DNA of 63,605 bases, counting the filler, from Hausera hauseri (lineage: Eukaryota), in assembly GCA_046269625.1 (NCBI GenBank). It is 12 parts of 12 records of this genome, joined end to end, with 100 filler letters (N's around TTAATTAATTAA, not from the genome) between each part and the next. Parts side by side here need not be neighbours in the genome. Positions count along the whole stretch, not along the records: positions 1 to 5,391 come from JBJURY010264064.1; 11 more parts are not named here. One strand, given 5' to 3'. Positions 1 to 62,580 of this stretch are shown one piece after another. Position 1 is the stretch's first letter. Every line of letters begins with the position of its first letter. The notes under the pieces are model-generated. The model saw only the letters and a program-made list of their open reading frames with translations. It had not been told where the DNA came from and ran no database searches. Made by a program: the position numbers and the translations under genes.

Positions 1-876
1 GTGCATTGTCCTACATACCCACACTATTGTAGTACTAAAGTATACAACGTTAGTGGTTGTCATAGTATAATGGAGCAGTACTATAGCACCACAACGCTGC
101 ACAAGAAACGGACCTACGTTTGTCCCGGTTGTTCAATAGTTGAAGCTCAAATCAACCATGAACAATTTTGCAATCTGCACAAGGACCACTTAAATCAGTT
201 TAAGCGGTCGAAGAAACAAATATTTATGGACAACAGCAGCAGCAACATCCTGTCAACAACAACAACCAGTAGGAAACGCGCTCATGTACGTAACCCGTTG
301 GAAACAGAGGTGGCCAAATTCCAACACCATCACTGCAAAGTGCAATATTATGCACTTGCAGAATTTGAAAATTTGAAAGGTGACAGGAAACAATGGTACC
401 TACCACATCGAGCCAAACCGTATTACAACGATTTTATTGCCGACGTAGGCGAAAAGCTCGAGGAGAAAATCGCCATCTATACCGAAAAGGGTAGTGGATG
501 GCGAATTATAAAAATTGTCACCTTTGGCTTTATCATAACAAAATCGAGTAACATAATATATTTTTCTGGACGATCATTATTCCGACACCAGCAGCTCTGG
601 TCGTAGTGAATGTAAAAAATACTAACCATGAATACTGTTTCCTTTACAGTATTCCGGCGGTATTAAAACATGACAACGTGGACAAAAAACATGCTAATCG
701 TCCAAATCAGTATCGGCAATATTTTTCTGAATTGGATTTCGGTGAAAGCTGGATGCCGATGAAACTAAAAACCATACCGGCCTTCGAACAGTGTAATCCG
801 ACTCAGTCAATCAACGTTTTCCGGTAAAACTCAATAGTCAAAAATACCGGTAGATGAAGAAATCTATAAGAATCCC
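1..876 (+). pseudogene. Polinton/adintovirus-type protein-primed PolB gene, N-terminal part (degraded)
   Basis: Zn-finger-like start, EKGSGWRI, VNVKNTNHEYCFLYSI and PMKLKTIPAFEQCNPTQSINVF, typical of the N-terminal region of animal Polinton-like pPolB. The reading continues at 2386 after an insertion. Confidence 0.75.
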
Positions 877-2385
877 TATTAATTCACGAAGTAGTTTTGA
901 GAAGCGAGATCCTGAAGTCTCTCGTTGGCTTCTTCAGTGCAGAAAGAAGATATTTAATGACGTATTCAGTTGCCGAATTTTTGCTTTCTTGAAATCGAAA
1001 AATGAGCTGAAACGTGAAACCCCCAACAATTGAACTTCAAATTGAAATTTTAAAAGTTGAAAAAGCAGGATTCAATTGTTTGAAAAATAGTTTTTAATAT
1101 TAAGAAAATCCGAAATAAGAATTGAAACTAGAAATTTCCAAGTTATGACTTACAACAAATTCTTTGATAATGTCCAGAATGAAGTAGAAACTGATATATT
1201 TAAAAAATGTATGAAGATTTACACAACTCAAATCATCAGTTGTATTTTTTTGTTTGCACATTTACAAAATTTAAACAAAAAAATTTTATAGTCAGCTGAA
1301 AACAGAGAAACAAAATTAGCCACAGTTGCTATATAAAATCAATGTCGCTTTTTGCTTTTCTTCGACGGTTTTTAAACAATACAATCCGACAACGAAAATC
1401 GCGGCATTTGACTTTCTAGAACATCAACATTACTTTCTTGAATTGTCTGCGTACAAGAACCAAGATCATCCGTGCTGAATTTGTTGTGGATTAACGAAAT
1501 ATGTTCATTCATAAACTGACGACAAGATGCTATTTTATGGCAAATTGCACATCTGTATATAATATAATCGATCATTTTGTCAGGATGAAATTCATCAAAA
1601 TGTTCTTCAATATTGTTCAAAAGGTGGCTGTGGTAAGTACAAAGAGGACAATGGAGAACGAGAACGTCACAAGTCATTAACTGTGGTAAAAGACCCATAG
1701 TAAGTGTTGTATTATAGTCTCATCGGTAGTCTGATCACCATTTGATTCTTTGATATTTGATTCGCCGAGATTTCGTATTCCATGTCGAATGTAATTCATT
1801 TGCAAATGATGAAATGACTGCTGAGTATTATTGCAAAAAATACATTTGAACTGTCTATCAGTTGATAATGTTTTTTCGAGAACGTCGGAATTTGTTCGAG
1901 AACATGGCCGGATCTCAGGTGAATGCTGAATTTGTGATAAATCTGAACTTCTAAAACTGTTTTTTGGCTTTTTGAATAAAGTTTTCCGGAAAAGTAAATA
2001 GTAACATACGCGGTATTACCGTAAATTTCTGTTGAGTCTGGCGATGTAGATTTGGCAATTGTTGAATTGGCACTTTCTTTAGCCGGTGCCGGTGCCGGTT
2101 TCGTTTGAGAGTTGCGTTTGGCCGATAGCATATCAGTAAAAGTTTTTGGTTTAGAATTGTATTTGACAGGGCTTACAGCAGCACCAGATACTACAACTGT
2201 TGGAACCACAAGGGGCAAAATCGTCGTCCAAACTATTATCTCTCTGTTGTTTAACGCCGCGATCATATTGTGCCGTTCCAAGGCGGAAGATCAGGACCCG
2301 TCTATGGGACCGACGCGGCGGCACCGGAGGCCCAGCTGTGCCCAACCAAATGGTTCAGAGGGCACCGGCCGCTTTGGGCACCACA
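877..2385 (-). mobile_element. Cargo-carrying insertion unit E1 (TGTGGTGCCC end; 5-bp TSD ATCCC)
   Basis: ATCCC at 872-876 and 2386-2390. Removing the unit restores pPolB EEIYKNPHVDIIYRS. The GC-rich end at 2276-2385 is homologous to 42711-42820 and 37850-37958. Confidence 0.8.
1372..2281 (-). pseudogene. Host C2H2 zinc-finger gene fragment (cargo of E1)
   Basis: ORF 1372-1698 has CPLCTY...HFDEFH and YRCAIC...HISLIH fingers. ORF 1796-2281 lies upstream on the same strand and is broken. Confidence 0.6.
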
Positions 2386-4770
2386 ATCCCCATGTGGATA
2401 TAATCTATCGTAGTCGGAACCCAAATGGCCGTCCAATAAATTTCTTGCTATTGGAGCAAAATGAAAAGTATCATTACGTTGCAATGAAAAATCTGGACAG
2501 ACTGCTGAACATGGAACATTACCACTTCTTCAAAAAACGGATACAGTGTAAATGGTGTCCTGTATGTCTGCATGGATTCAGAACAAAACAACATGGGAGA
2601 AACGTGTGACTCTATGCAGACAAAATTCGTCAGGAACCACAATATATGTCATGCACGTCAAAAAACAACTCAGATTCACTGATTGGTCAAAAACACAGTC
2701 CGACATATGTAGTATATGCCGATATCGAAGCTAACATACCACGTTACAACATTTATGACCAAAAATGTGTTCCAATCGCTGTCGGTATGTGGTTGCCCAA
2801 TGAAAGCCGCAAATCAACCACAATATTACGTTCTTCATGGCTGGAACTGCGTACGCGATTTCCCGCATCATAGTGGAAACGGAAATCGCACCCTGGTACA
2901 ATAGAAATAGCAATAAACCTTTGATGTGGACAGATGAAGATGAACGCCTGACATTTACAGTCACATATTAATGTTACTTGTGCCACAAAATATTGCCGTT
3001 AGATGCACAGGAACGTCTCGTACCGGATCACAATCATTTTACCGGTCGATATCTCGGAGTCGCATGTAATTCATGCAATTTGGCAAGGCGTGTGCGGCCA
3101 TTCCAACCGGTGGTATTTCATAACTTCAGGGGTTATGATTGTCACCATATTTTGAAATTGGCAATAAACGGATTTCCACACAGGGAACTATCCTTAATTC
3201 CGACTACGATGGAGAAATACCTGCCACTGCCTGCTCGTATAAACCAGTTTTAGATGCGATTCCTTGATTCATTGCAATTTCTCAATGAATTATTGGCAAA
3301 GCTGGTAAATGCCTTGCCAGATGTGCCGCTAACAATGACTCAGTTCCCTGTACATATTGCGTGCAGCAAAGGCAAATTCCCGTATGATTTTGCGATATCG
3401 TACGAGCGGCTGAAGACGACAGACGAATTACCACCACAATGTCCCGGTATCATAGAAGAAAAATATCACAAAGCACAGTCGTTTTTTTCAGAGCTCGGCT
3501 GCAGAAACCTGTTGCCGTACATGCTTCACTATCTGAAATTGGATGTATACCTGTTAGCCAATGTGTTTCAGATATTTCGAGCTAATGCGTTGGCAGAAGG
3601 TAGACTGGAGCTATTCAACTTTTACTCAATACCCGAAATGAGTTGTGCATCAGCTTTGTTGTCACTGGATACGGATATCGCGCTATTGCAAGACCCGGAA
3701 ATGTACCGAATCTTTTATGCTGGTATTCATGGCGGCATGATATTTGTCAACAAGCATCACATAACCAGTGATGATACCACATCACTGTTGTATATCGATA
3801 TTAATAACCTGTACGGCTGGGCGTTTTCACAACCTTTGCCGTGCGGTTCATCTGAATGGGTAGTCGACAAGCAGGATCTGGACGCAATAATAGAAAATCT
3901 GCGGACAGCAGATATAACAGAAAACAGCCCAATCGAATACCTGATGGAAGTCGATCTCGTGGTACCAGATGAGCTGCATGACTTCCTGGATGAACTGCCG
4001 GTCACATCAATCAGCCAATGTCCACCGAACTTGAAGGTGAAGAAACTGTTTATGATGCATGAACCTAAACAAAACTACATAGTTCAATGGCGTCTGTTGC
4101 AATTTTACATGCAGCTGAGTGTATGCATCACAGAGCTGCATTGCACAATCCGATTTGCACAGGCCCCGATATTCAAGCCGTATATCAGTCGGATTTCGGA
4201 AAAACGAGCTGCAGCTTGTACAAAGTTTGAAAAAGACTATTACAAACTGAAAACAATTCTCGCTATGGAAAAACAGTAGAGAATCTGAAAAAGCGGCTCA
4301 ATGTACGCCTATGCAATAAGCAGTAGTTCAGGCGATCAATGCACATTGCCGATGGATTAGTTGCCGTGCTTTTAAACAGGGAAGAAGTCGTACTGGACCG
4401 GCCAAGTTATATAGAACAAGTGGTATTGGATCTGAGCAAGTAGTGGATGTATGACCTGCAGTATCACGATTTGGCACGTTACAGGTAAATGTTCGGCGAA
4501 CAGTTTTTTCTTGGAACTGGAAAACCTCAATCGCGAACAACTGCTGCAGCAAATGATGACAGACGGATTACTGCATACGTCTAATTATCCACAAATTCAT
4601 CCATTGTACACAATGCAGTCACAAACAAAATCGGCTGCTTCAAGGATAAAAGTGAAGGTCGGGTTCAGATTCGGGAATGGGTTTTTCTACGGCTAAAATC
4701 TTATAGCCTTTTAACTGACGGAAATAAAACACGGTGATTACCGCCGTATCTACGAAGGAGGAGACGGAGA
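2386..4770 (+). pseudogene. Polinton/adintovirus-type pPolB, exonuclease/EndoVII/polymerase part (frameshifted)
   Basis: HYVAMKNLDRLL, VVYADIE, DHNHFTGRYLGVACNSCNL, VFHNFRGYDCH, FLDSLQFL, motif A LYIDINNLYGWA and KDYYKLK; many stops and frameshifts. Confidence 0.85.
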
Positions 4771-5491: not shown

Positions 5492-6565
5492 TCCCACTGC
5501 ATATTTCATCTGTCAATCGCTTAATTTCAGCTTCTAAATCTATTTTGTAATTCTAAGTATATAAATAAATTACGAGAACACATTTAAAAACCTTACCATT
5601 TGTCACACTATTTGTTGAAACAACACCATGGTATTTTCGCACATTTATACAAATCCACCAATATTAAAAACAAAATTTAAACAAAAAATTTTAGCGCCAA
5701 ATTCAAATTTTTAAATCCGACTTAAACCCATGCAGTTCACGTGCTTGTGTGTATCACTCTCATGATCGTGTGCTCCCATCTCCACCCTATTAACCGTTTA
5801 TGTGTGTATCATTTCTTCTACATCATGACTCATCCCAAACCACTTCCTTTCCTTCCTTCCCTGGGAGATTGGAGTAATGTGCTCACATCTATCTACTTGA
5901 AAAGGAATATTTTTCACCAATAGATTGCATTGTCAACGATTCAGGAGGTTGGTTGTTTGAATAATTAGAATTTTAGCTGGAATGCAGATCAGAATTTGGT
6001 TGTTTTAAGATAGACGTCAGAGCAGTCAATAACGACTGCTGTTCAACATTTCCGGTACTTTTAGTTTATGTAAAATTTCCGCTAATATTTTATAATAGTC
6101 AGGAGAATTATAATCCTTTTGTACAGGTAGCTCTTTCCTGATAAGGTCAATCATAATTCTGGAATAACATATAACAACGTTCCACATTTAGAATAGTGGA
6201 ATACGGCTATGTAAATCTCTATCATCATTACATTTTAATGATAACGACTCGGGCAATCGTTCTTGTGGTTTTTTGCGTCAATTGAACTAATCTCATTAAA
6301 TCCTGAACAACTTTGACCTTATGGTGAGCTAGCATCGGTAATTCTTTGACTTCTTTTCTGATTATCTGATAAATTGTGTCGGATGGCCGCAGCTTCTGCA
6401 CGTTGATTTCTTTTTATGATTATCTGTCCGATGGACACGACAACGGCAAAAATCCCCAAGAAAGGAAAAACTGGTCCGAAAACAGTGCAGTTGGTGCAAA
6501 GCTAATGCACCCGGCCGTGTCCGACCTAAATAGGCCAGGGGGCGCAACGCGCGGTGGGAACCACA
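5492..6565 (-). mobile_element. Cargo-carrying insertion unit E4 (partial; far end beyond contig start)
   Basis: The reverse complement of 6506-6565 is TGTGGTTCCCACCGCGCGTTGCGCCCCCTGGCCTATTTAGGTCGGACACGGCCGGG, which aligns with the E1-E3 ends. It abuts piggyBac coding sequence. The interior is decayed host-like coding DNA. Confidence 0.6.
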
Positions 6566-8348
6566 CACTTCGTCTGCACGTACAGCGCTGCACACAAGAA
6601 GAAGGTCGCCGACTGCTACAAGATGGATTATAGACTGGATCCTTCGAAGAACAGAAAGAATTCATATCCATTCTCTACGTACGTGGAGTTACTGGTTCTA
6701 AGGGTTTACCACTATAAAGCATGTGATATGTTGAGTGGGGATTGTCGTTTTGTAAGATTACAATGACTCGAAACAGGTTCAATGAGACAGTGAAGTTTTT
6801 GAGGTTCGATATGAGGTCAACAGGAGGTACACGGATAATGAACGACAAGTTAACTCTACTGTTAGAAATACGGAATGGATTTATAGTCAACACAAGATGT
6901 GCTACATACGTGGTGAGAACATAACAGTCGACAAACAGATATTCTCGACTAAAGCTCGCTGTTACTGGACTCAGTATATGGCTAATAAATATGACAAGTT
7001 GGTATCAAGTTCTGGCTTGCTGATGATGTTGATACAAAATACCTAGCCAACGGCTTTCCGTATCTAGGGCGAGACAAGCGACGTCCAACAGGGCAAAGGT
7101 CGTCTGCATGTGTGGTTCTCCATCTAATGGATCCGTACCTTGGAAAAGGTCACAACGTCACAATAGGAATTTTTTTCACGTCTCTGAACCTGCTGACGCA
7201 ACTACAACATAAACAAACGAGTTTGGTTGGCACAGTCAATTGCAGACACGTCTGCTCAGTTGTATTCAACACGTCTGCTGAAAATTGACAACTGTACGTT
7301 GACAATCTACAGGTGCAAGCCAAAAAAGAAGGTCATTATAGTTAACTGACTGACCATAAAAAGAAATCTGAGAGTCGTATTCTACAACGCCACAAAATTT
7401 GCAATTGATGTCCTGGAATAAATGGCTCGAAAACACAGTGTGAAAGCAAGTTCGCGTCGTTGGCCAGTGCAAGTTTGGTATAACGTTCTTGACCTGTCAA
7501 CCATCAATGCATCTTGTATAAGTTGGTAACTGATTTACGCATCTCAAGAAGACAGGTCATTCTTCAGTTCGCAAAACTACATTGGTACTCAACTAACCTC
7601 TGCCGCTGTTACCTCTACTGCCAGTTGCAGACGTCGCCACTGTCAAGGTGCACAGTGTAAAGAGAACAAGACCACTGACGTTTGTTCGCAGTGTTCCCGA
7701 GCTGTCTGTGACAAGTGTACCGCTAATATTTTAAAGCAACTGATGCGCGTGGACTCTTCAGTTGGTCAAAACAACAACTCAAACTAGAATTGACTAATAC
7801 TGATATATTGTTAGTAAGGACAAACAATTGTTTAATTAATATAATTTAATAACTTACTTTATTTCTTTTTCGTTTTCATTTATGTTACCTTTATTGTGAA
7901 CAATTTGTTCCATCTGGAGTTTGAGACAGGAACGGTACGGGGCATATGCAACAGTTTTGCACAGAACGACATAATTGTTTTGTTTTTAGAAGCATTATAG
8001 GAAATGTTCCTTGACGTTATAGTTTATTAGAAGTTAACATTGTTTTTACAGACTTATAGGTTACAGTAGAAAATTGTATGAAATCTAACGTAGATTTTTG
8101 TGACTTTTATAGGCTTACACATAAACATGACTATACAGGTTGACCAAAACGAGCACCATTTTAGATGCCAATTTAAATTTTTGTACATTAATTAATGCTA
8201 CTTCCGGTCACGTGCCATACTTTTTGAACAAAATGTAAAAATCTGTATACCAGCAAAACCGTTGTTGAAATTGTTAAAAGGACAGCTAGCGGTCAATTTG
8301 ACCGTTTCTGGTCCTTCTAGGTATAACAAAAACCCGGTTCTTCTAGTG
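6566..8348 (+). mobile_element. piggyBac (PGBD4-like) transposon, 5'-interrupted remnant
   Basis: MTRNRFNETVKFLRFD, NITVDKQIF, frameshifted DKFGIKFWLA..YLANGFPYLG, RRWP and a C-terminal Cys-rich tail. Ends ...CCGGTTCTTCTAGTG followed by TTAA (8349-8352). Confidence 0.85.
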
Positions 8349-18069: not shown

Positions 18070-18478
18070 GATTATTGTTGCGACGTTTATCATAGACTTG
18101 AGATTTTCAACTGCTGGCTCTCTTACGATCGTGATTCCCTTACTAATTTGTAAACTTCTGTCAGGCTGACACTGACTTTCTAGTCAGGAATCAAGGCAAA
18201 TTCGTTGACTTCACCTTACAAAAACGAGCTCAATAACGTATTCAACCTTCTCGGTCGAATACTAAAAGTTAACTCCTTGTCTTAATTTCTCTACTACATC
18301 CTGTCACCTTCTGAGTTCTACTCAGCACACAGGACCCGTGTTTTACCCAGACGCCACCAGCGTTTAGAGTGACTTCCCAAGAGGAGATAACCCTTATTAA
18401 TTTCTGGTTATTTCTCTTCTACCGATTTTCAATTTCGTGTAGGGCCCTTTTTATGGTCAGCCTCTAATTACTGTCACA
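18070..18478 (-). repeat. Gypsy 3' LTR (partial)
   Basis: Minus-strand PPT-like ACGGGAAGGGCATAT followed by TGTGACAG at 18478, downstream of the pol remnant. Confidence 0.55.
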
Positions 18479-21400
18479 ATATGCCCTTCCCGTTACAAAG
18501 AAGAGTGACATTTACACTCCAGTAAATGGAAGTCTTCTAAAAAATCTCCTCTTATTCTCTCTATCTTTTGGTTTCTATTTCTTATCTCCCCTTTTCTGTA
18601 AATATGTCAGTTAATTTGACCTCTACCCTTAATTCTTATAATTCTTATTTTTATGTATGTACATGCCATTATCAAAGCACAAGTTATATCATTACTCCAT
18701 AAAATTCTCTCCACATATTGAATCACATGATAATTCAAAGTATCAGAAATTGCGAACATAAACAAAAATCATATTAATTTCCTCACGAAGCGTACCCCTT
18801 ATATTAAGAGTACAATAATTGCAAATGTGAATATTTCAATACAAGTTGATTACAACAAACACTGTACATGAGACTTTTCCATGCGTCAAAAAGGAAGAAA
18901 ATTCTACATAGTAACATTTTCATTCAGCATCACTTTGTGCCGATCAAAACTTCCCTGTCTACAATTCAACAATTATCGACGTTTTTCATTGAAAAAATTC
19001 ATTTTTCCCCTCACCAAAGTAAAAAAAAAATGAGCAAAAGTTTCAAAACTCAGAACATTTAACAACATTTTCAACCAATTTATTATGCATCTTCAAAAAT
19101 TTCAGTGCTTTTCATCTCTCAATTCTACCGGTCTGAACACACTTTCATCCTTCTCATTTATTCATCTTTTACGCTTAGTGTTATGTATATGTCTGCTGTG
19201 TTAATGTAGTCTTTCATGCGATTCCTTTCTCTCCTCACTCGCGGATTTGGGTTTAGGTCGTTCGTCTCCCATTCCATTCCCTGTGGGTTTTCTTATACTT
19301 CTTTATCTCCCTCGCTAGTTTCTAATTGGGGGTTTCCTTTGAAAGCCACCTTATTTCGCCCTCTCCTTTATTACTTCGTGTATCTGAATTGATTTGCATT
19401 TTCTCTTTGCTTGCATTGCCGTACTAATAGGAATCTTTGACGTTTTATAACTATCGTATGTTTTCCTAGCATGTTTTTGTCTGTGTGCTGATTGTTTCTT
19501 AACTTTTGCTCTCGGTTAATCGTTTGAACTGTTGTCGGAGTCTCTAAGTCTTTTCAACCTTCTTGTCATTTCTTCCATATCTGACACTTCTGTATCTTCG
19601 TCACCTTAGTCTTCATCTTCTTGTTGCTCTTTCTGTGTTGTTTAGTCATTATCTGCTGCATCCTGTTGTACGTGTCTTTGCTCTCTGTACACTAGTCTTC
19701 TCTTTCTTTCTACCAATGGAAGGTCGCTATCATTTGACGAACTACTAACTATGTTTTTTCTCCTCTTCCGTTGTTGTTCTTGTGCTTCTTCGAATCTTCG
19801 CCTAGCTGCTGCTCGAGTATTGCGATATGATGCATCGGTGGCTATTCGTTCTTGACTATCTGATTTCGCTTGTAGGAGTTTCTGTAGGAGTTTCTGCATT
19901 TCTCATTTGAGGCAAAAGAAACAGTGGTGTAACTAATTCGTATCTAGTGTCTGACTCATCGTTCTCTGACGTTTCTGTTGTACTGGACTTATTTGATGTA
20001 TCAGAGTCGCTATTCTCAGGTGGAACTGCGTAACGTGATTTCCTTTCTGTACCCGACGCTTCTGACTGTTTTCCTCTGGGAATGGTCTATCTTGCCTTCT
20101 CGGGTGGCTCGTAGTGACCTTTGCTGTCTGTCCTGTACGCTGGTTGATCATATGAGCAGGTACCCATAATAAGAATCCACCTTCACCATCAAGTCTGTAT
20201 AATATGTTATCCTCAGCCATGTACTTTTTCAGTTTTTTCAAACTGTCTTCGCTCTCAGTTTTCAGATCAGTGATAATTTGTTGGAGTTCACTATCTTTTT
20301 CTTGTTTGTCTTTCTACTTATTTCTGTATCACTTGGCTCAGATTCTATATTACTGTGTGTTTCACATGTCTGTCGATCAGTGGAATTGATGACTGATATT
20401 TGTAATGTGAAATCATCAATATCTGGTTTTCCTTCTTTGTCTTCAAACTCCATTTCTGCATGACCCTTTCAGGTATTCGAGACAGCAGGTCAGCAACAGT
20501 ATTCTTCGGACCGGGAATATATTCGATATTCATTTTGTAGCCTTGCAGATTTCAAATCCACGGTTGTATGCGTCTGTTTTGTACGTCTGCCTTCATCATG
20601 GCTTTCATGGGCATGTGATCGGTTCTAACAATGAATTCGCTATTATGTAGGTAAAAGTTAAGCTTCTGCAGAGCAACGTGAATTGCGTATGCTTCTTTTT
20701 CTGTTACAGACCATTTCTTCTGTGATTTCGTTTGCCTATGTGGTAAAACGTATATAGGTTTCTCCTTGACCTTGAGCTTCCCGTTTTCTTCTTCTTGACT
20801 TTATTCTTGAATTAAGACCGCACCTATTGCATTCTCCGAGGCACCCGTGTAAAGCTTATATGGTTTATTTGGATTTGGATATGCCAGAAGTGGTACAACT
20901 GATAGGCTGTCTTTTAGATATTCAAAAGCTTTCTGGCAAGTTTTGTCCCAGTGGAAACGTGTGAACTTCCTTATGAGGGCTACTATAGGTTCCGTGATTG
21001 CTGAAAAGTTTGGAATGAAGTGTCTGTAGTATCTACAGGTTCCCAAAAATGTGCGAACTTCCCTTGAGTTTTCGGTGCACCCATCGACTTAATTGCTTGT
21101 ACTTTCTCATTGTCTTCCTTGACTCCATCTTTAGTGATTATGAATCCTAGATTTTAAAAAGTCGCACTTGCTAAGTTTTAGGCGTACTTTATGTTGCCGT
21201 AGTCTGTCGAATACTATTTCGATATGCCGTAGGTGATCGTCTATATCCCCTATCGTGAATATCAATATATCGTCGATATACGCAAGAGCAAATGTTTGTA
21301 GACCTTCCAATACCCTATTCATTAGTGACATGTATGTCGCAGGGGATCTCTTAAGACCAAAAGGCATTACGTTCCATGCGTATACTCCTGAAAAAGTACA

Positions 21401-23017
21401 GAATGCACTTTTAGCTTTGGCATCAGGTGCCATTGGAATACACCAGAACCCTGATCTAGCATCAAGTGTGGTGAAGTATGTTGATCCGCCCAGCATGCCC
21501 AAAATGTCATCAATTAGAGGTAAAGCGAAACTGACATTTGTCGTTATATCATTGAGAGATCGGTAATCAACACAAAATCTATGTGTTCCGTCTTTCTTTG
21601 TGACGATGACTACCGGGAATGACCATTCAGAACGAGTACGTTCGATAATGCCTGCTTTCAGCATCTCCTCGATTGCTTTTTCGACAACCTTTCTGTTTCC
21701 TAGTGGAGTGCGATATGGTCTCAGACAGATAGGAGTATGATCACCGGTATCTATCTTCATTTCCTTCATCTGCATTCTTCCCAACTCCATGTCTGACAAA
21801 GCAAAGACATAGCTATGTTTTCGAACGAACTGTGCAGTTCTTTCTTTGTTTTCGTCTTCAACCTTTAGCGTTGCTAATAATTGCTGCATTCTTTCTTCAT
21901 CATGCATTATCACGGCTATTTCATTACTTGTATTTCTCCATTGACCTTGTCTTATCTCCTGTAATACCTTGGTTCTATGTGCATATCTTTGGTCTTTTCC
22001 ATCCTTACAAGGTGTTTGTTGCTTGACTTTATCTGGTTCTTGGCTTATTGGTGAACTCTGATTCTCTATCTGACTTAAATCTTTTGGTCTTTCTGATTTC
22101 GCCACTATACACCCTTTCTTTAAAGTGATTGTTTTCCCCGTATGGTTGACTAACATTACCGGAAATTCTCTCTTTGAATTTAGCTGGACCATACCATGTA
22201 TTATCTGTAGTTAACGTCGATGATGTTATCCTCTAATGGTTCAATCCTTGCTTGGTCAACATGTTTCCAATACTCGTTTTGTTTCATGGTGGCTATAACC
22301 AGATTTATTGAATTCGGTTTCCAGACTGCTTTTTGCTTCTCCCGTACAATGGAGGCAATGTGTATGTCGTCTTGAAGGTCGATATAGTCGTTATTGATCC
22401 GAATCTTCTTAGATCAAAGTGAATACGAGCATTGCTCTTATGTAAGAAGTATCGACCAAGTATGGTACTTCTAGACATGTTCGTAACTATGATGAAGGTG
22501 TGTTTCCTGGTGGTCTCTCCGATCTTAAATTCAAGGGTAGACTTTCCTTTAACCTGTATTGTACTTCCCGATACGGACCTAAGCTCAATGTCAGATGGTA
22601 ATAATTTGCCTTTATTCGTCAACGCTTTGTATATTCATTCACGCTGTATACAGTGTGCAAGAGGCATCTTACTCTCGTCTTTCCGAAATATAATATACAA
22701 GAACTTGGGTCGGATATATAATTGATTTCATAAGTTTTCTTTTTTCTTTCTGGAGAATTGTACGTACTAACGGTCTTGGACTCTTCTGTATACCCGTGAT
22801 GTTGCAGCTTTACGTGAAAGACTAGTTCGTGATTCATATTTTCGGCTTTGATTATTCTATGTCTTGTTTCACATCGACTGTGTGTTTGGGAGGGGACTTC
22901 TTGAACTCGTTGATGATGGGCATGAGCAACCTTGGGTACATGGGGAATGGGTGGGACATTTCTTATCTTGCTTGCTTTTCTTGATCGCAGGTTGTCAGAT
23001 GCACTTGATTTTACCGG
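18479..23017 (-). mobile_element. Ty3/Gypsy pol (protease, RT, RNase H) remnant lacking integrase core
   Basis: Protease-like ILGRYFL. RT motifs RFCVDYRSLN, LDARSGFW, VMPFGL and YIDDILI. RNase H YYRHFIPNFS and LYTGASENAIGAVL. Confidence 0.9.
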
Positions 23018-27430: not shown

Positions 27431-27829
27431 NNNNNNNNNNNNNNNNNNNNNNNNNNNNNNNNNNNNNNNNNNNNTTAATTAATTAANNNNNNNNNNNNNN
27501 NNNNNNNNNNNNNNNNNNNNNNNNNNNNNNTTAATTTCTTTAGCGAAACCATGAGTTATGTGGAGTAATGGGTGCTGGGTGGTGGCATGTTATGTTTTTG
27601 TAGTAAGTTAGATATACACCATCATTATCATTCTTTTTGATGACGTCAGCATCTTGATGACGTATATTCTTTAGTTATATAGTAAGGGGTTATGAGGCGG
27701 TGATGGTGACGTGTTAGATATCATCAGGTTCCGTATTCCTCATTCGTGGGCATGCTTATGGGACATGCAAGGGTCATATTTTCTGTTAAGGGCGGGTATC
27801 TTAAGGGTACTGGAGGTGGTTTAGGTCAC

Positions 27830-28500
27830 CAGCATGACAAAATCGCTGACATGACCATTGTCGACATGAAAGCTTATCAATGTGAAAAATCCAAACATGA
27901 AAACTTGAGACGTGGAACATTGCTGCTATGAAAACTTACTGACATTCCACGCCGACATACAAATTTGCAGAGATCCCAAAGTCGCCGACATGAAAATTGA
28001 CGACACGAAAGTTGTCGGCGACATGAACGTTGTCGATGTCAAAGTTGGCGACATGAAAACTTGTCAATGTGAAAAATCCTAACATGAAAACTTGAGACTT
28101 GGACCGTTGCTGCTATGAAAACTTACTAACATTCCAAAGTCGCTTCACAAAAGTTGTCGACTCGAACGTTATGGATATGAAGGTTGTCGACATGTAAAGT
28201 CGCCAACATGAAACGTCACCAACATGACAAAGCCATCGACGTGAAAGTTGACGATACAAAAGGTGTCGCCACGAACGTTGTCGCAATAAAGGTTGTCGAC
28301 ATGAAAGTTGCCAACATGAAAAGTCGCCGACATGAACGTTGTTGACAATAAAGTTGTCGACCTGAACATTGTCGACTTGAAGGATGTCAACGTGAAAACT
28401 TGCTGACGTGAGAAAATCCTAACATGAAAACTTTAGATGTGGAACGTCACCGATATGAAAACTTACTGACATGTCCAAAGTCACTGACATAAAAACTGCC
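27830..28500. repeat. Degenerate ~19-20-bp minisatellite (CATGAAAGTTGTCGA-like) with higher-order repeat
   Basis: Many CATGAAA/GTCGAC variants. The block TGTGAAAAATCC.AACATGAAAACTT recurs at ~27880, ~28068 and ~28408. Confidence 0.8.
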
Positions 28501-30545
28501 CACATATGATCCTATAAGCATGAAGAAGACGACCTAAACCACCACCAGCACCCTTAAGAAACCCTACCTTAACAGAAAATATGACCCTTCTTGTCCCGAC
28601 TTCCTCCCATAGATATGCTCAAGCATGAGGAAGACGACCTAAATATCGTCAGCACCCTTAAGAAACGCAATTTTAACATAAAATATGACCCTTCTATGAC
28701 CTAACGTGCTATTAAAGACATGCTCAAGCATGAGGAAGTCGACCTTAACATCGCCAGCACCCTTAAGAAACCCAACCTTAACACAAAATGTTACCCTTCC
28801 ATGATCCGACATGCCCCTAAATATAAAGAAGATGACCTAAACCACCACCAGCACCCCTAAGAAACCCAACCGTAACAGAAAATGTTACCCTTCCATAATC
28901 TGGCATACCCCTAACCATGAAGAAGATGACCTAAACCACCACCAGCACGCCTAAGAAACCCAACCTTAATAAAAAAAATGTCACCCTTCCATGATCCGAC
29001 ATGCCCTTAAACATGAAGAAGACGACCTAAACCACCTCCAGCACCTTTAAGAAACGCAACCTTAACAGAAAATATGCCCCTATAATGATCCGACGAGCTC
29101 CCATGAACATGAAGAACACGACCTAAACCACCCCCAGGACTCTTAGGATACCCGACCTTAAGAGAAAATATTCTCCTTCCATGGTCCGACTGTCTCCCAT
29201 GAACATAAAGAACACGACCTAATCCACCCCCAGGACTCTTAGGATACCTGACCTTAAGAGAAAGTATTCCCTTCCCATGATCCGACATGCCCTAAACATG
29301 AAGAAGATGACCTAAACCACCTCCAGTACCCTTAAGATACCCAACCTTAACNNNNNNNNNNNNNNNNNNNNNNNNNNNNNNNNNNNNNNNNNNNNNNNNN
29401 NNNNNNNNNNNNNNNNNNNNNNNNNNNNNNNNNNNNNNNNNNNNNNNNNNNCCATGATCCGACATGCCCTAAACATGAAGAAGATGACCTAAACCACCTC
29501 CAGTACCCTTAAGATACCCAACCTTAACATAAAATGTTATCCTTCCATGTCCCAACTTGCTCCATGAACACGAAGAACACGACCTAAACCACCTCCAGCA
29601 TGCCCAAGCTTGGGGAAGACAACCTAAAGTAGCTCTATCACCCTCAATAAACCTAACCTTAACAGAAAATATGACCCTTCCGTGTCCCGATTTGCTCCCA
29701 AAGAAATGCTCAGGTATGAAAAATACGATCGAAACCACCACCAGCACCTTTAAGAAACCCAAACATAAATGAAAATATGACCCTTCCATAACCCACATTG
29801 CTCCCATAGACTCAAGCATGAGGAAGACGACCTAAACCACACCCAAAACCTTTTAGAAACCCAACATTACCAGAAAATATGCCCTTCTATGACCCGACTT
29901 TCTCCCATGAATATGAAGAAGACGACCTAATCTACTTCCAGCACCATTTAGATACCCGCGCTTAACAGAAAATATGTCTCTTCCATGTCCCGACTTGCTC
30001 CCATGAACATGAAGAAGACAACCTAAACTACCTCCAGCACCCTTAGTATACCCAACATGCCCCTTCCATGACCCGACTTGCTCCCATAAACATGAAGAAG
30101 ATGACCTAAACCACGATCAGCACCCTTAAGATATCCAACATGCCCCTTACTTGATGCAACTTGCTTCCGTAGACATATCCAGCATGAGGAAGACTATCTA
30201 ATCACCGCCAGCACCCTTAAGAAACCGAACTCTAACCGAAAATTTGCCTTTTCCATGACCCATCTTGCTCCCCTACACACGCTCAAGCATGAGGAAGACG
30301 ACCTAAACAACTCCAGCACTCTTAAGACACCCAACCTTAACAGAAAATATGCACCTTCCATGATTCGACATGCCCCTAAACATGAAGAAGTCGGCCTTAA
30401 CCACCACCAGCACCCTTAAGATTCCCAACCTTAACATAAAATATGCCCCTTTAATGATCCGACATGTCCTTTAACATGAAGAAGATGACCTGAACCACCG
30501 CCAGTACCTTTAAGATACCCAACCTTAACAAAAAATATGACCCCT
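28500..30545. repeat. ~95-110-bp tandem satellite
   Basis: About 20 units of CATGAAGAAGACGACCTAAACCACC.CCAGCACCCTTAAGA.ACCCAACCTTAACAGAAAATATG.CCCTTCCATGA.CCGAC; an inverted partial unit at ~27745-27829. Confidence 0.9.
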
Positions 30546-37849: not shown

Positions 37850-39503
37850 TGTGGTGTCCACGGCGGCCGGTGCCCTTTGGCTCATTTGGTTGGGCACGGC
37901 CGGGCGTCCGTTGTCGCCGCGTCGGATCCATTGTCGGGCCCGATTTTCGGCCTCAAAAAACTTCACAATTTCTACATCATAAAAATGACTCCAATTACAC
38001 CATCGTTGAAGAACAAAGAAAATAAAAGATTAGAAAAATTGATGACGATGAAACTGAAATTATGTATAAAGAACCAATATTTTTCTCCGAAGTCGAAGTT
38101 TTAGATTTATCACAAAGCAAATCTCCATGTCGGTCAGCGTATGCTATCGGTACAATCACTGATCGTAGTAATGCCAACGAATCGTTGAATTTTCTAGCCA
38201 TGGTCAGTCTTCATATCGAATAGATGATCTTAATAATAGTGATATATGGAATAATATAGGAAAAATACGCCTATATATTGAAAGGTTTTGGAGCGCACAG
38301 TTTAGCCAATATTCTACCAACGATTCCGGAATTATCGTTACAGACAACAGTTCACAAGACATTAAAACCATCGTGTAAATGCCTGAATATTGAACAATTG
38401 CAGAAAATATTGTCTGTTGTTGATCACTGGGTTATACAATCCAATAACTCACATTTGTCGTCCCACACAAGGCAGAAGAAAACATTTCTGAGTGAAATTG
38501 TATTAGAAGAAATTGTAACAAGTAAGCTGATTAAACCATTAGAATCGTCCGTACTAGCAAAAACGTCGTTGCGAAAAAAATCAAAGAAGTCGAAATACGA
38601 AAAATATTGGGAAAAATTGGTGTTGAAACATCTGAACCGTCGACTGTGTCTCACCGATAAGCCTCATTTGCACTGGAGCTTAATGCAGCCGGTTTTGTTC
38701 AAAGGTGAAGCAGTTCGTTTCTGTGCTGTAACAAATAAACACGAGCTTGAAAGTCTGTGAAATATAATTAAAATTATCATCCGATACGCTTGACTCTCGC
38801 CTCCGACAGTTGATACTAAAACGATGTCTCAGATGCTATTTATGAGCCTATGTACAAATACGATTCTTATGCACTATCTGACTTTTTATCTTTATTTTCT
38901 ATTATTCGTTGTTATTGTTACTGATATTACTATTAGTAGTATTAGTATTATTGATAGTACTACTGACTTATCATCATTATTATTGGCATCATTGGCTACT
39001 TCGGCTTTGCGGATTTTATGCACGTTTTATATACAAAAAACGCAGATTTATCGCGGCTGATATCTCTGAACATCTGGTTTTCTGTTTTCATTAGCATAAT
39101 GTCACGTTCTTTTTGTACAATTCGTTTTGCGATGTGCCGGATTCGCCGGCCTTGTTTTGTGTGTCGTTCCTTATGACATTGTAAAAGTTTAAAAAAATTT
39201 GTTTTCTTGAATAATTGACAATTGTTGTTGAAGTTCGATTTTAAATTTCTGGCCATTTTGAAGTCTTCAATTACTGCTCATATTCAGTTCGTTTACACCA
39301 TTTTTGAAGTTTTGTTTAAGAACAACTATTATTGCGATTAATACAAAAGGAAATTTAACGGTGGAATTATTCAAAATTATTTTCTAAAAGTGTAGAAGCA
39401 AAAAATACAGAAATGATCGATGAGGAGTTGGCGAAATTTTATCAGAAATTTTGGCTGCAGTCGTCTCCGCAGGATTTAATCATCACGAATTTTGCAATTA
39501 ATA
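37850..39503 (+). mobile_element. Cargo-carrying insertion unit E3 (no matching TSD)
   Basis: Starts TGTGGTGTCCACGGCGGCCGGTGCCC (homologous end to ~37958), then host-like ORFs (38278-38760 + and 38996-39256 -). Ends ...AATTAATA like E1, where the Sola2-like frame begins. Confidence 0.6.
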
Positions 39504-40905
39504 CCTGTGTCAAAATTTAGCATAGTTTGGGTAGAAATATCTTGTGGATTGCTTGCAGGCACCATATGCAAGAAGTCCTTCTTTCAGATGTATTCAAGTC
39601 TGCATATGGTCCCTCGAGAGATCCGAACATACCATTCTTCATTAAGTTCAAGGAAAGATGGCATTCGATAAACCATGATGACTGGTGTTCCTCACTTTAT
39701 GATCCTCTTTTGTCAGAAAGATTCTCAGTGACAGGGGACCCTATGCAGCTGAAATAAAAATTAGTGACATACCTCAAGTCAGCAATTGAATCACCTCACC
39801 ATACACGTGACGATTACAAAGAGCTGCTGGTTTTTTCCTATGCATTTTTTGGGTGCACAGCCTGAAGGAGGATTGCATATCAGATTGCCCGGCTCATTCC
39901 ATCAAGCAAGATGGATGGTAAAGGCAATCTGTGCTCTTAAGATCTTCCTTTTCAGAAATCAGATGCAGCTGTCTCAAAGTGAACTGAACGTTCTAAAAGA
40001 CCTCCGCCTCTTCGATAGCTTCCTATATTGTTTTACTGGAATGAGACACCAATTTTTTCTCATGCTCCAAAAACTATCCAGACTTCATAAAGGAGCTGTA
40101 ATTGGGCCTACATGATGCAGCACTGACTTCTGCGGCTTTCAATGCCTTTAAAAGACATCTCTGGCATGTATCAGAACAGCTGGTAGCATTGGCATTCTTT
40201 GACAGTCGCATCTGTCCAGAGGAAAAGCTACAGATGGTAAAGAACTTGGACCTTCCAGAGCATAAAGATGGCAAGAAACTAAAACGGCTTGACAAAAATG
40301 TTTTTACAGCAACATGCATTTCTGACTATGTTATGAAGCGAAAGAAGTTTCTTTGACAGAATTCTTTCCGATGGACAACAAAGATCATAAACCTTTCTCC
40401 CAACACCACCAGCAACATGGGAGCATGATGCAACTTATCAGGAGTTTAAGGACGCTGTACAGGACATTAAGGTCGTTAATGATACTGCAGACCAGATAAT
40501 TGCCCTTGATACTAAATTTAACAGTTCTCTAACTAAGGAAGAGTTACACAAACAGTATCTACTGAAGGTGGTTGCAAAGCACTTCAAAGGTATGCCTTCA
40601 ATTTTAACCAGTTTTCATTTTAATTTATGGACACTGAACCAGTCGCTAGTTAATATCTACTGTATGATATCTCTTATTCTGACAACAGTAATGTTTCTGT
40701 TTCTAATACGTCTAATTGTGCAGTGATAAATAACTTTGAAAGGAGTTCATTTCAGTTTTCCTATGTTAAAGATAAAGTACTTAGGAGGGACCCCTAAACT
40801 TTAATGTAGACTGCTGAAATTTCTTACGTAAGTAATTCATAGTGAATGACACTAAACTGCGATGTGCCTCAAACGAAATGGAATAATATATTATTTTGAA
40901 CCACC
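39504..40905 (+). mobile_element. DDE transposon remnant, probably Sola2-like
   Basis: CVKI*HSLGRNILWIACRHH, DDYKEL, PGSFHQARWM, RHLWHVSEQLVALAFFD and VVNDTA. The terminus is ...TTTTGAACCACCC; family assignment is tentative. Confidence 0.6.
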
Positions 40906-40908
40906 CTA

Positions 40909-41891: not shown

Positions 41892-42336
41892 TATAGTGTT
41901 CTCGTTATATTCTGCCGAAGTAAAAAATATCCATCGAATATTTGGTATATACCCATGTGTGTAGTCTAAATTTATATAATAAATTGTGCATTTTTAATAA
42001 GATGAATAAAATTTAAATTGACAACACTTTCAAAAATCGAATATTAAAAAAACATTAGCTAGCGATAATGAGCAAAAATGTCATCAAAATTTAAAAATTT
42101 GTAAACATAATGGTGATGGCAAATGTCATGTGAAAATTTTTCCAACTTTTGAAAAAATATTTTTCAAGCTTTTTCTTCTTGTTCACAACTAACATTTTTA
42201 GTTACACAAATGTCGTTTATGGTTCGCGTTGGAGGTNNNNNNNNNNNNNNNNNNNNNNNNNNNNNNNNNNNNNNNNNNNNTTAATTAATTAANNNNNNNN
42301 NNNNNNNNNNNNNNNNNNNNNNNNNNNNNNNNNNNN

Positions 42337-42710
42337 CCAGATGAGCTGCATGATGTTTTGGACGATTTACCGGTCGCACCGTTTAACCAATATCCGCCAG
42401 ATTCAAAAGTGAAGAAACTGCTGATGACTCATGAACCGAAGCTGATTTACGTGGTCCATTGGTGTCTGCTTCAGTTCTACATGCAGCTCGGTGTACGCAT
42501 TACACAGTTGCATCGTGCAATCCGATTTGCTCAGGCTTTCATATTCAAGGCGTACATATACGGAGATTCAGAGAAACCAGCCGCAGCTTGTACAAAGTTC
42601 GAAAAGGACTATTACAGGCTGAAAAACAATTCTCTGTACGGAAAAACAGTGGAGAATCTGAGAAAGCGGCTCAATGTACGCCTATTCAATAGCGAAAAGC
42701 GATTGGTCAC
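42337..42710 (+). pseudogene. pPolB copy 2, part upstream of E2
   Basis: Highly similar to 3965-4320; motif B YYRLKNNSLYGKTVENLRKR. Confidence 0.85.
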
Positions 42711-44710
42711 TGTGGTGCCCACAGCGGCCGGCGTCCTCTAGCCCATTTGTTTGGACACGGCCGGGCGTCCGCCGCCGCCGCGTCGGGTCCATAGGCGGGC
42801 CCCGATCTTCCGCCTTGAAAGACGTTACGTCAAGTAGCACCTCTAGTATCACAAATGACTGCACTGTTGATCCGTCAAACGATGCACAAGATGCAGTCAT
42901 CTGTTCAGAGAAAAATACTAAAGTTATTTGTAGTTTCTACCAAAACATAAACTGAGTTTAAAGCAACCGAAGCAGTTATTGTCATGTCGAGTGCCTGAAA
43001 TTCTGAAAGCTGAACTGTTGAATTGTCTGTCTGTATTCTGTCAGCAACCTGAAGATGTAAGATCCATTTGGAATGCTCTTCAGTCCTGTAAAGTCATCGC
43101 CAATTCATCTGAATATTCGAATTCAAGTATTCAAATAGAACTTGAAGTTGTGGAACCGCGGTCTGAAGAGTACTCAATTACCAGGGAATTTATTAAGTTC
43201 CTTTTGTGCGTTACTCCACATCTTGTTCGTGACATAATACACATGGATTTGCATGGTCAACCCGGTGACCAGTTCAATACGTCAATGGTCTCTTTACCAT
43301 CAATGCATCCGTCTGTCGACAGTCTGACGAACATCATTCAAATGGTGACGGAGTCTGTATTTCTAAAACATTCCCTGAGAACCTATAGAAACATAGAGGA
43401 AAAATTCGAGATTGCTGAATTATTTTTGAAATTGTGTTACAAGTGTTGATTTGTTTCTTGGTGTCAATACGATCCTGGATTCTATATAATAACACAACTG
43501 CTCACCGAGTCGCCGTTTTTTTAAACTGTTGTCAATATTATCGAAGAAGGATTTTGCTAAGTCACAGAAGCCTTAAACAACGTTACTTATGGACCGAGGA
43601 CAATTTTCAATGAGGCGTTAAAGTCACTGGAAAGTTCAATTCAATATTCCATGGATCTGCTGTGTATGTTGTAGAAAAACGAAACACACTTGTTACCTTT
43701 GATGAGATCTGTCAACTAGGAACATAAATGATTGATGTCGATCAAACATTTTATTGAACCGTAACCGTCCATTAGTGATGGTCGGATGTAGTCATTTAGT
43801 GGTGACATCGAATTCTAGTGAAGGATTTCTGACAAATCTCATCAAATGTGAAACTTGTTAATGAATGTGACGAATTATGTATGAAGGCATTGGAATTATT
43901 TCATTACTGTACCAAACTAATTCATTGCCATAAGTATATCATGTTACCATTTGTACGTAGAAATTTGACGATTACCGATTATGATTTAATGCAGATACTT
44001 GTCAATTGCCTTGATAAATATGGCGATATTGATGACGACATATTTGATGATGAAATGGAACAATTTCGTGACAACTTTTCCATGAAATTATTCTTTACCG
44101 ATGATCATTTACTGATAACACCCCGTTCTATTATTTTACAAATACTCGTTACTTGTCTACAATATCCGACACCAAATATCGGTCAACATTTGATGGGTTT
44201 TTGCTGTGAAAATGTCAATTCAGTAAAACATAGAGCACTACAAGAAGCCAGTGTCGGCGATTTCCCAAAGACCTGTCTCCATTATTAAATCTGGTCCAAC
44301 GATTAACGAAAGATATTTTATCCAATCTTTGTATGAATAAGAATTGCGATACGAATTGTGATCCACATGCTTTGTCATCATTTTATGCCAATAATATCCA
44401 TTTATGTTTGTCATATCAAATACTGTATTTGTTATGCAGTAAAAGTTGTACATCCGTAGTCGGGACATTAACTAATGTATTTGTTTAAATAATGTAAAGA
44501 AATTTATGCTTTAGTTTGTGAAATTTGATTTTAATTAAAACGTGCATATAATCCGACACTGAATTAATTTTATTGATACTGCTTTAAAGCATTTGCCATT
44601 CAATTTCAGAATTTTATTTTGATTCCGTTTTTTTTAAATTCTGGATTTGTCGCTGGACGAGTTCATTGCCATATATTCGGCTACCCTTTGTGATTATATT
44701 TAGATCCTCA
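42711..44710 (+). mobile_element. Cargo-carrying insertion unit E2 (TG...CA, 2000 bp, 5-bp TSD GTCAC)
   Basis: GTCAC at 42706-42710 and 44711-44715; termini TGTGG...CCTCA. Excision restores pPolB NSEKRLVTYTSRTQFRRSMHIADG. Confidence 0.88.
42870..44460 (+). pseudogene. NUP205: Nucleoporin Nup205 internal fragment (cargo of E2)
   Basis: LKAELLNCLSVF, IQIELEVVEPRSEEYSITREF and ILQILVTCLQYPTPNIG..LMGF...GDFPKTCLH match remembered Nup205 segments; stops and frameshifts; no obvious introns. Confidence 0.75.
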
Positions 44711-61371: not shown

Positions 61372-62580
61372 TGTGGTGCCGCGGGCTTGGGCGCCTGCAC
61401 AGTCCAATTGCAATTTTTCTTTTTAACGAAATGCTCAAACAATTTTTCAAATCTTTCAAGGAATTTGTGGACACCTTTGCCATTACATTCCAAATTTGTC
61501 AAATCCAACAAGTCGTTTTCTCGCATCACACCACTAATACAACAGCTGTCGGTCATCCAGCAACTAATGTAAATTATACTGTACGAGACGCTTTATGATA
61601 TTGCCAAAGAAGCTTCCATGAATTCTTCTATTTACGGACCGAAATATTCGTTAACATTCTTAAATAGTTCTAGCTGCAATCAGTATAAGAAATGGTATTT
61701 CTGCAATACGAATAATTCCGGAGAAAATCTACTTCAGTCGGGAATTGAAAAGAGCAACCGTGATTTAGTAAACATTGAATCGAAACATTAAAGGTTGTTA
61801 GTGCATTGAATATTCGTACTTGTTGTGCAATCTATATATAACATTGCGTATTATTGTGTGTGAATAACGCATAACTAATTACTAGGTAGTCAAATGACTA
61901 TTCAGTCCAAACATTATGCAAAATCAATCGTTTAAAAACGATTATTTTTTTGTAAGCTGACACTGAATTTTTATGCACGTATACTTTCAACATTATTATA
62001 CGAAATAAAGAAATTTTGTCAATTTTTTTGTAATAACTACGTGTTAAATTTGTATTCGCTTTTCATTTTTCTGCCTCAATTATGGAACTGAAAACGCTGA
62101 TGTTAGTATTCTATATTGACAAATGAAATTTCAATGAAATATTTTTCATTAAGTGCGTTTTCGTAGATTAACCGAATATTTGGTATGATCAGCCGAAAGA
62201 CATTTTGTTTTGTATATTTCAATATAGTGATTGTAGAAAGTTTGTCACATTGACAAATCATCAATTTGTGTATTATAACAGTATAGCAGTAAAAATTAAG
62301 TGGACAATGTTGGGCTGCTGTCTGTCAGTAATAAAATTGGACAAATCATGAAATAGTGCATTGAAAGTAGATTGAATAATGTGAATTCTGGATAACTGAT
62401 TTATTAGTTAATTAGAAAATTTTGATTTTTGAAAATAAACAGTTATTTGGCTTTATTACTTCATTATCTGTGTTGGAATTTATCGTATACAAAGCTTTAA
62501 CAATGGTGTCAGATATGCAAATAAAAGACAATGAAAACAAGTTGATAAAGCACTCAATTGTCCCACAGCCCTACAAATGA

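Follow-up and report, generated by a model that had tools for sequence, protein, structure and literature searches.

The DNA analysed here (the window, 63,605 nucleotides from Hausera hauseri) is a chain of small contigs linked by N linkers. Its first part holds a decayed pPolB gene that is interrupted by a unit termed E1 (Table 1). The earlier note had described E1 as a 1509-bp unit in reverse orientation flanked by ATCCC duplications, and had called for an empty site to be sought in other pPolB copies; both points were borne out, and E1 was confirmed as a genuine insertion with a 5-bp target duplication inside the gene. The duplication copies lie at both edges of the unit; left of E1, ATCCC occurs at no position other than 872-876, and the chance of a matching duplication for a given 5-mer is about 7e-4. 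A sixth letter also fits, which leaves the cut site ambiguous by one base, and the duplication is read as 5 bp because that of a sister unit, E2, is strictly 5 bp and a TGTGG start is common to the units. The pPolB homologue P0001 is collinear across the site (aa 345-356 align to 844-879, and aa 352-489 to 2379-2789), and six contigs of run X1 join position 870 to 2385, skipping 1514 bases.

E1 reads TGTGG... from 2385 and finishes ...TAATA at 877, in agreement with the TA, rather than CA, reported earlier for its far end. That far end is unrelated to the far end of E2. Neither a terminal inverted repeat nor a direct repeat was found at the two ends of E1, the cargo lying inside a single unit, and no poly(A) or simple-repeat tail was found on it. 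No paired LTR copy of E1 was seen in the sequence examined.

Table 1. Coordinates of E1, its target gene and related features in the window
Feature	Position	Strand	Remarks
Decayed pPolB gene, target portion left of E1	1..876	+	
Target-site duplication ATCCC, left copy	872..876	+	
E1 unit	877..2385	-	1509 bp, TG...TA; likely solo LTR with cargo
Far-end module	877..1280	-	common to contigs with other interiors; variants in up to 11 contigs
Segment Y and AT-rich stretch	1281..1479	-	
Cargo block A	1480..1715	-	~17-nt leader, start codon at 1698, zinc fingers 1 and 2; P0060 aa 37-109
Cargo block B	1716..2086	-	linker, conserved YxxxYFxGxL motif, zinc finger 3; P0060 aa 111 to ~231-238; one frameshift near 1960
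Segment X	2087..2236	-	open frame without Pfam family; covered by no cargo homologue
42-nt extension	2237..2278	-	common to a larger subfamily that then continues with other sequence
Conserved GC-rich head, 107 nt	2279..2385	-	common to E2 and E3; likely LTR start (U3)
Target-site duplication ATCCC, right copy	2386..2390	+	
Decayed pPolB gene, portion right of E1	2391..4765	+	many stops and frameshifts
Third head E3	37850..37960	+	inside Tc1 transposase gene
Sister unit E2	42711..44710	+	same head, TG...CA, GTCAC duplication, Nup205 cargo; in another pPolB copy
Related head Hb	61372..61410	+	directly behind integrase C-terminal tail and purine tract; twin Ha at 59891

Shared heads, sister units and copies

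The homology between the conserved ends of E1 and E2 that had been claimed earlier holds, with 83% identity over 107-110 nt (E2 head at 42711). A third head, E3 (37850), adds to that pair and is 81% identical to the E1 head; overall, identities of the E1 head to E2 and E3 range over 81-84%. The search gave three head matches against 0 in 100 shuffles. TGTGG starts all three units, and their bodies are unrelated, sharing no match longer than 31 nt. Both units with a far end found (E1 and E2) combine a TG start with a 5-bp duplication; for E3, three TCCTC candidates were judged by eye, and none is followed by a recognisable Tc1 start.

Two further heads, Ha (59891) and Hb (61372), both start TGTGGTGCC, each after an integrase C-terminal tail, and diverge from each other past ~40 nt; a purine tract is clear ahead of Hb and degenerate ahead of Ha. 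The integrase tail gave an MLVIN_C-like lead in the Atlas (0.92) and no match in Pfam, PDB or viral contigs. Significant likeness of the E1-E3 heads to Ha and Hb is confined to the first 9 nt (past these, the score is equalled by 19-270 of 300 shuffles), and the sequence examined showed no head of the E1 type that follows a PPT or precedes a PBS. A structured RNA or ribozyme was rejected as the nature of the head, which has no Rfam match and unremarkable fold z-scores (-0.7 to +0.6); inspection by eye revealed no T-arm pattern of a tRNA-derived head or PBS. The heads had 0 matches in viral contigs and, as a two-block pattern, 0 in metagenomes, and five short-pattern matches in public collections were all dismissed as chance, lying in 63-71% GC DNA.

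The cargo of E2 is Nup205, and 26-44 spare nt separate its two matches, the second of which is weak (E 0.04-0.2). Since this spare length is below that of host Prp31 introns (52-77 nt, n=3), spliced RNA is a candidate source of the E2 cargo. Among 197 candidates, a search for Nup205 homologues found nothing at E 10 or better. Wherever cargo was identified, it is sense to the head.

In run X1 the head is high-copy, with a summed contig depth of 2533 in bin 2161-2340 versus 35-78 in the interior. Contigs ~90-94% identical to E1 cover the head edge, the cargo and the far end, and the cargo was therefore captured once and then multiplied; these sister copies, with a common interior, have diverged by ~6-10%, and variant contigs occur along the entire interior, as secondary amplification would leave them. 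All interior bins are present and one contig crosses 2086-2288, while no piece among those listed spans the whole of E1. Among the loose ends listed, six contigs break at 2236/2237 (bin depth 330), and contigs match the far module and then diverge at 1119, 1236 and 1280; another subfamily departs from E1 at nt 150. Because some contigs share the far 400 bp and then diverge, this part looks like a family module. Among the X1 rows listed (6 of 38 loose ends, 8 of 138 pieces), there was neither a cargo-free form nor an unpermuted donor joint. The proposal in the earlier note that cargo is exchanged between mobilisation events stands in so far as the same head precedes different host cargo (zinc fingers in E1, Nup205 in E2); a change at each mobilisation is not shown, and the sister contigs keep the E1 cargo.

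Zinc-finger cargo and the order of its parts

Comparison with homologues identifies the E1 cargo as the N-terminal part, with three fingers, of a flatworm zinc-finger/TALE-homeobox gene, in circularly permuted form. The fingers run ZF1-ZF2-ZF3 in 28 of 29 homologues and ZF3-ZF1-ZF2 in E1, and the swapped order was also recovered by profile search. Identity to P0060, the closest homologue, stops at K109 in block A and starts at P111 in block B, so that the outer ends of the cargo would meet at one point of that protein (aa 109/111) after about one full turn, with the joint between the blocks placed only to 1716-1740 and linker alignments soft by ~9 residues. The length of 607 nt compares with 606 predicted for P0060 aa 37-238. 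At the outer joints, with segment X before block B and segment Y after block A, a proxy test gave no microsimilarity (1059 of 2000 random pairs were as good).

The P0060 frame is entered from an F/V/S-rich leader and stops at ...NEP|VN, edges that we infer to be those intron read-through would give, and block B ends within ~8 codons of the exon end inferred in this way. The cargo lies in one probable exon, so that E1 by itself does not demonstrate an origin from RNA. A retained 33-nt mini-intron in block B was considered and rejected, as the stretch encodes a motif conserved in homologues.

As had been stated earlier, the C2H2 cargo is sense to the conserved end, and the interior of E1 derives from a host gene family, which answers the question of whether it was merely fixed LTR sequence without a host gene. 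The permutation and the split over three frames are additional to that description. Protein identity to the nearest homologue is 74% and 62%; the cargo amounts to ~200 codons, and long family members have 953-1378 aa. The cargo is most likely a dead, frameshifted copy and probably functionless. An Atlas search with it returned generic C2H2 clusters. The flatworm ZFP-1 family is described, in the available part of its source, as having QRSNLQR and RKDHLxR in fingers 2 and 3 (PMC5927768); it was rejected as the identity of the cargo, both motifs being absent from the E1 translations and the long homologues carrying Homeobox_KN instead (3 of 3 scanned).

Possible origins of E1

We consider it probable that E1 is the solo LTR of a Gypsy-type family, likely of flatworms, in which template switching put host RNA sequence in place of the LTR interior. 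While synthesising the minus strand, the enzyme would have switched from element RNA to host RNA at a point within what was to become U3, and would have switched back just short of the constant start of U3, so that the head was kept and the interior changed. Its entry into the zinc-finger RNA may have lain immediately past finger 2, from where it would have run on through the start codon; copying would then have resumed from the end of the exon-sized region and halted at the entry point, presumably since RNase H had by then cleaved the template at that place. On a back-spliced circle the permutation would simply be one turn, whereas a linear mRNA would require run-off at the 5' end and downstream re-entry. 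Our tentative first choice is a back-spliced circRNA; two passes over one linear mRNA are a possible second, and a captured DNA circle or tandem duplicate is an unlikely third. The new LTR would have multiplied into the diverged sisters; one copy did integrate into the pPolB gene with its 5-bp duplication, and LTR-LTR recombination may afterwards have left a single LTR.

Ty3/Gypsy solo LTRs start with TG and have a short target duplication, and E1 shares both features. It has the TG start, a duplication within 4-6 bp and an empty site, and lacks the CA end; a single transition would turn CA into its TA. A solo LTR suits the evidence better than a one-ended unit moving alone, the reading closest to the earlier note. 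Such a unit would be a cDNA chimera, with a true LTR start at one end and an arbitrary far end, that a retrotransposon integrase inserted directly without a two-LTR stage. The unrelated far ends of E1 and E2, the missing CA, the lack of a paired copy and the perfect duplications agree with such a single-repeat unit, but we hold it unlikely: the far 400 bp recur with other interiors and the interior has diverged sisters, so repeated replication would be needed, and integrase requires two proper ends according to the available text of PMC5131818.

Less probable again is a Pack-type non-autonomous DNA transposon with one conserved end, which would have captured genomic DNA and permuted it via a DNA circle or tandem duplication. 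The fixed duplication length, the several DDE transposases in the window and the single probable exon of the E1 cargo are consistent with it; against it stand the terminal inverted repeats that were not found, the TG start with a 5-bp duplication, the similar heads behind integrase tails, the uniformly sense orientation of identified cargo, and an E2 cargo that seems to leave no room for introns. We regard as very unlikely an ordinary long LTR with a single old zinc-finger capture, the heads being conserved starts of three unrelated LTR subfamilies without any recurrent process: the capture may indeed be old, given the protein identities, and the cargo is common to sisters, but a different host gene follows the same head in E2, and the likeness of E1 to another subfamily stops at nt 150. 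An assembly chimera, suggested by the short contigs of the window and by the lack of a listed X1 piece across E1, is scarcely credible given the perfect duplication, whose site is set by homology, the empty site, and the X1 coverage of all interior bins with a contig across 2086-2288. Helitrons make no target duplication and have TC...CTRR ends, and were ruled out by the 5-bp duplication and TG...TA ends; a LINE-driven processed pseudogene or SINE was ruled out by the absence of a tail and of an Rfam match for the head.

Known systems and wider meaning

LTR-mediated retroposition in metazoans (Tan et al. 2016, PMC5131818) resembles E1 in that partial sense host coding pieces are joined to LTR-element sequence and later amplified. 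E1 carries a partial copy of a host gene, probably of its mRNA, with secondary amplification, but its cargo does not lie between two LTRs; in the available account of Tan et al., part of the internal region between the LTRs gives way to the retrocopy, whereas the E1 cargo occupies the LTR position behind a 107-150-nt head. The terms "solo LTR", "within the LTR" and "circular" are absent from the main text of that paper. CircRNA-derived pseudogenes (Dong et al. 2016, PMC4897178) share with E1 non-colinear gene parts, no poly(A) tail and an association with LTR sequence. As far as the accessible text goes, they are mammalian and defined by an exact back-splice joint, whereas E1 shows about one full turn within a unit bearing its own target duplication; their mechanism is there called unknown and mysterious. 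AUG circRNAs, as outlined in PMC6487579, are circles with a start codon and N-terminal frame, like the template proposed for E1. Planarian Burro elements are flatworm Gypsy elements with host-like domains, which the portion consulted of PMC6431247 places within a working polyprotein, whereas broken host pieces fill the repeat in E1. Pack-MULE and Pack-TIR elements are likewise non-autonomous, carry host cargo that varies and duplicate their target, but in the excerpts available (PMC6431247, PMC8277862) they have terminal inverted repeats, lacking in E1, and capture genomic DNA. A literature search at the level of titles, within openly available main articles, found no paper that describes either cargo within the LTRs of flatworms or LTR cargo in permuted order.

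Gene capture by LTR elements is already known, and in the literature compared, as far as its available text extends, the cargo lies between LTRs. In E1 it fills the repeat itself and differs among relatives, which implies that the element may need little fixed LTR sequence past its start. The one-turn permutation bears on how circular RNAs become reverse transcribed and integrated, and the circle and linear-RNA models make differing predictions that would be easily checked given the donor gene and more copies. In its fullest form, which we think somewhat unlikely to hold entire, a flatworm Gypsy lineage would keep a short fixed U3 head and have the rest of its LTR repeatedly overwritten by host RNAs, including circRNAs, E1 being a fossil of exactly one turn around a start-codon circRNA. 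If true, circRNA-derived pseudogenes would gain a concrete mechanism (a switch of template, a single turn limited by RNase H and a switch back), and such LTRs would be a readable archive of packaged host RNAs.

Insertion of E1 and its empty site

The window consists of short eukaryotic contigs linked by runs of N. The earlier note had described E1 as a 1509-bp unit with an ATCCC target-site duplication in a pPolB copy and had named contiguity of other pPolB copies across the site as a check, and both were borne out. ATCCC stands on either flank, which for a fixed 5-mer has a probability of about 7e-4 by chance, and the target gene, which carries numerous further stops and frameshifts, is 69% identical to P0001, a 1235-aa pPolB protein that aligns across the insertion (aa 345-356 at 844-879, aa 352-489 at 2379-2789); in the homologues P0010 and P0011, too, the two parts adjoin. 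In the sequencing run X1, which contains 0.43 of sampled words and could come from the source sample or from a different one, six contigs join 870 to 2385, skipping 1514 bases, i.e., 1509 plus 5. Given the flanking repeats, the homologue adjacency and the X1 joint, the insertion and its empty site are genuine.

Features in the window, with positions
Feature	Position	Description
E1	877-2385 (minus)	1509 bp, in first contig (1-5391); start TGTGG at 2385, end TAATA at 877
E2	from 42711	2000 bp; TG...CA ends, GTCAC duplication; in another pPolB copy
E2 cargo	42820-44710	central part of Nup205 (from aa 633 to ~1034 of the human protein), collinear; AT-rich stretch after; first 150 nt past head without assigned source
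E3	37850	breaks up Tc1 transposase
Region after E3 head	37850-38760	decayed sense frame (166 aa, 38260-38757), no Pfam match; more transposon pieces beyond
E1 block B	2086-1716	finger 3
E1 block A	1715-1480	start codon, fingers 1-2
P0060 match 1 (aa 31-119)	1716-1450	74%
P0060 match 2 (aa 111-159)	2086-1961	57%
P0060 match 3 (aa 152-232)	1985-1740	62%
Ha, Hb region	59467-63605	two tandem units, each with a TGTGGTGCC head that follows an integrase tail and purine tract and leads into unrelated sequence; coding-like sequence downstream of Hb
TGGCGCCG stretch	near ~60036	candidate primer-binding site; would make Ha a 145-bp LTR
Host Prp31 gene	56700-58340	three introns of 70, 77, 52 nt
Gypsy-type pol, decayed	18070-23017 (minus)	RT, RNase H; no recognisable integrase behind
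Transposase-like frames, decayed	39400-40600	CRHH motif (Spy-like)
Mariner-like piece	40784-41965	adjoins the transposase-like frames
Tandem arrays	27759-30543	15/30-nt and 94-105-nt units; strong strand skew; partly mirrored at 27760-27828
GC-rich island	6471-6630	lone, ~150 nt, without match to heads

The shared head and LTR elements

The first 107 nt of E1, its GC-rich head, are present three times in the window, in E1, E2 and E3, which are 81-84% alike, and such matches appeared in 0/100 shuffles; the three bodies have nothing in common beyond 31-nt matches. The head recurs much more often than the E1 interior does: summed X1 contig depth, which shows only relative repetition and not copy number, was 14-19 at the contig tail (5041-5391), 35-78 within E1, 2533 in the head-edge bin and 4,600-76,000 on pPolB. 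An Rfam search of the head gave no match, and its fold showed nothing unusual. The model of the earlier note, in which a chimeric unit with one conserved end moves alone, appears unlikely, and a Pack-type DNA transposon slightly more so; an inverted partner of the head is absent from the far end of the unit. pPolB-like sequence (1-4765, 42337-45462 and 48200-48358) makes up 4738 of 62537 bases, yet holds two of the three heads, and a target preference for pPolB is possible, on numbers too small to establish it. pPolB homologues bear an endonuclease VII domain, and the family's summed depth in X1 is very high.

Related heads, Ha and Hb, start with TGTGGTGCCGCGG at 59891 and 61372, each behind a copy of one 460-bp tail (77% alike), and agree for about 40 nt before passing into unrelated sequence. 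A purine tract precedes Hb and a degenerate one precedes Ha. Ahead of the second tail copy lies a 66-aa frame, and C-terminal domains of retroviral integrases are among the Atlas clusters closest to it (0.92); the frame had no Pfam or PDB match, and its GPF motif is similar to Gypsy integrase tails. A 3′ LTR begins with just this arrangement. The heads of E1-E3, past their first 9 nt, bear no significant likeness to Ha and Hb, and hence would at best represent a different subfamily.

Identity and permutation of the E1 cargo

The E1 cargo is a piece of a host zinc-finger gene. Of 10 clusters of its homologues that were looked up, the 8 with names belong to trematodes, cestodes and monogeneans, which makes a flatworm the probable host. 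The search with the closest, P0060 (244 aa), gave 31 proteins, 20 with E <=1e-10, most of which start at the MGLLP motif, and a Homeobox_KN domain was found in all three long family members scanned. The flatworm proteins P0070, P0073 and P0077 combine three N-terminal C2H2 fingers with a TALE homeodomain; in the portion of the literature covered, we found no paper devoted to such a flatworm family. Assignment to the ZFP-1 family was rejected by comparison with features given in PMC5927768.

The finger order is 1-2-3 in 28 of 29 family proteins, a set that omits short or distant matches of the P0060 search, and the remaining one is a fragment without these fingers. In E1, finger 3 is followed by the start codon and then by fingers 1-2, and a 19-homologue profile gave the same picture. 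Identity to P0060 ends at K109 in block A and begins at P111 in block B, so the outer cargo ends meet at one donor point, within a margin of about 9 residues (the linker alignment is soft). The cargo is 607 nt long versus 606 expected for aa 37-238, and the inner joint lies somewhere in 1716-1740. The P0060 frame has an F/V/S-rich leader at its start and NEP-VNYYW at its end, and several homologues terminate in Q-VS, K-VS or similar. Judged from these sequences, such ends would be intron read-through, which would place an exon end at aa 238, about 8 codons or less from the block B stop. A 33-nt intron in block B was rejected, the stretch being conserved coding sequence.

Origin and multiplication of the cargo

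E1 itself has no power to tell RNA from DNA origin. The E2 cargo matches human Nup205 at aa 633-771 and, weakly, aa 984-1034; the two hits are collinear and leave 44 nt to spare between them (26 against the Xenopus chain). Set against the host Prp31 introns, this spacing favours spliced RNA as the putative source. In E1 as in E2, the identified cargo reads in the sense direction of the head.

On 852-2300, 136 X1 contigs were aligned, 71 of them <95% alike. E1 variants occur along the full length, each in 1-12 contigs, and 150-200-nt pieces with 9-20 differences lie over 1162-1313, 1258-1432, 1421-1589, 1768-1947, 2017-2187 and 2086-2288; one contig with variants at 1638-1706 suggests a span across the block A start. 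Six contigs track E1 up to nt 150 and then diverge, and others have the far end in common and differ from 1119, 1236 or 1280. On the strength of these variants and diverging contigs, E1 is a mosaic of modules differing in copy number, and its cargo was multiplied following capture. Neither a cargo-free nor a donor-order joint was seen among the 6 of 38 loose ends listed. An ordinary long LTR with one old capture and no recurrent process is very improbable, and an assembly chimera is scarcely credible.

We consider it probable that a Gypsy-type reverse transcriptase switched template onto host RNA within U3, with solo LTRs arising later; template switching onto mRNA is established (PMC5131818). 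While copying the U3 region, the enzyme would jump onto a co-packaged host RNA and return to the element RNA close to the U3 start, and the new LTR would be duplicated, multiplied and afterwards cut down to solo LTRs. An RNase H-active enzyme entering the RNA past finger 2 would have to halt on return to its entry point, which may explain why the outer cargo ends meet. As the template behind the permutation we tentatively suggest a back-spliced circle that includes the start codon, which would also account for block B ending at the putative exon end. Run-off at the 5′ end of a linear mRNA with re-entry, a possible and only slightly less probable route, accounts only for the meeting of the outer ends, yet its template is far commoner. 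A proxy test for microsimilarity at the joints was negative.

LTR-mediated retrocopies (PMC5131818) are one of the two closest known systems; the other, circRNA-derived pseudogenes (PMC4897178), is LTR-associated and of unknown mechanism. In literature searches that cover few subscription papers, nothing turned up about cargo carried within the LTRs of flatworms or about LTR cargo permuted by one turn. E1 behaves as a solo LTR does, yet it has no terminal CA and its paired form was not seen, and it is therefore not classed as a proven member. The permutation of the cargo is the part of E1 worth following.
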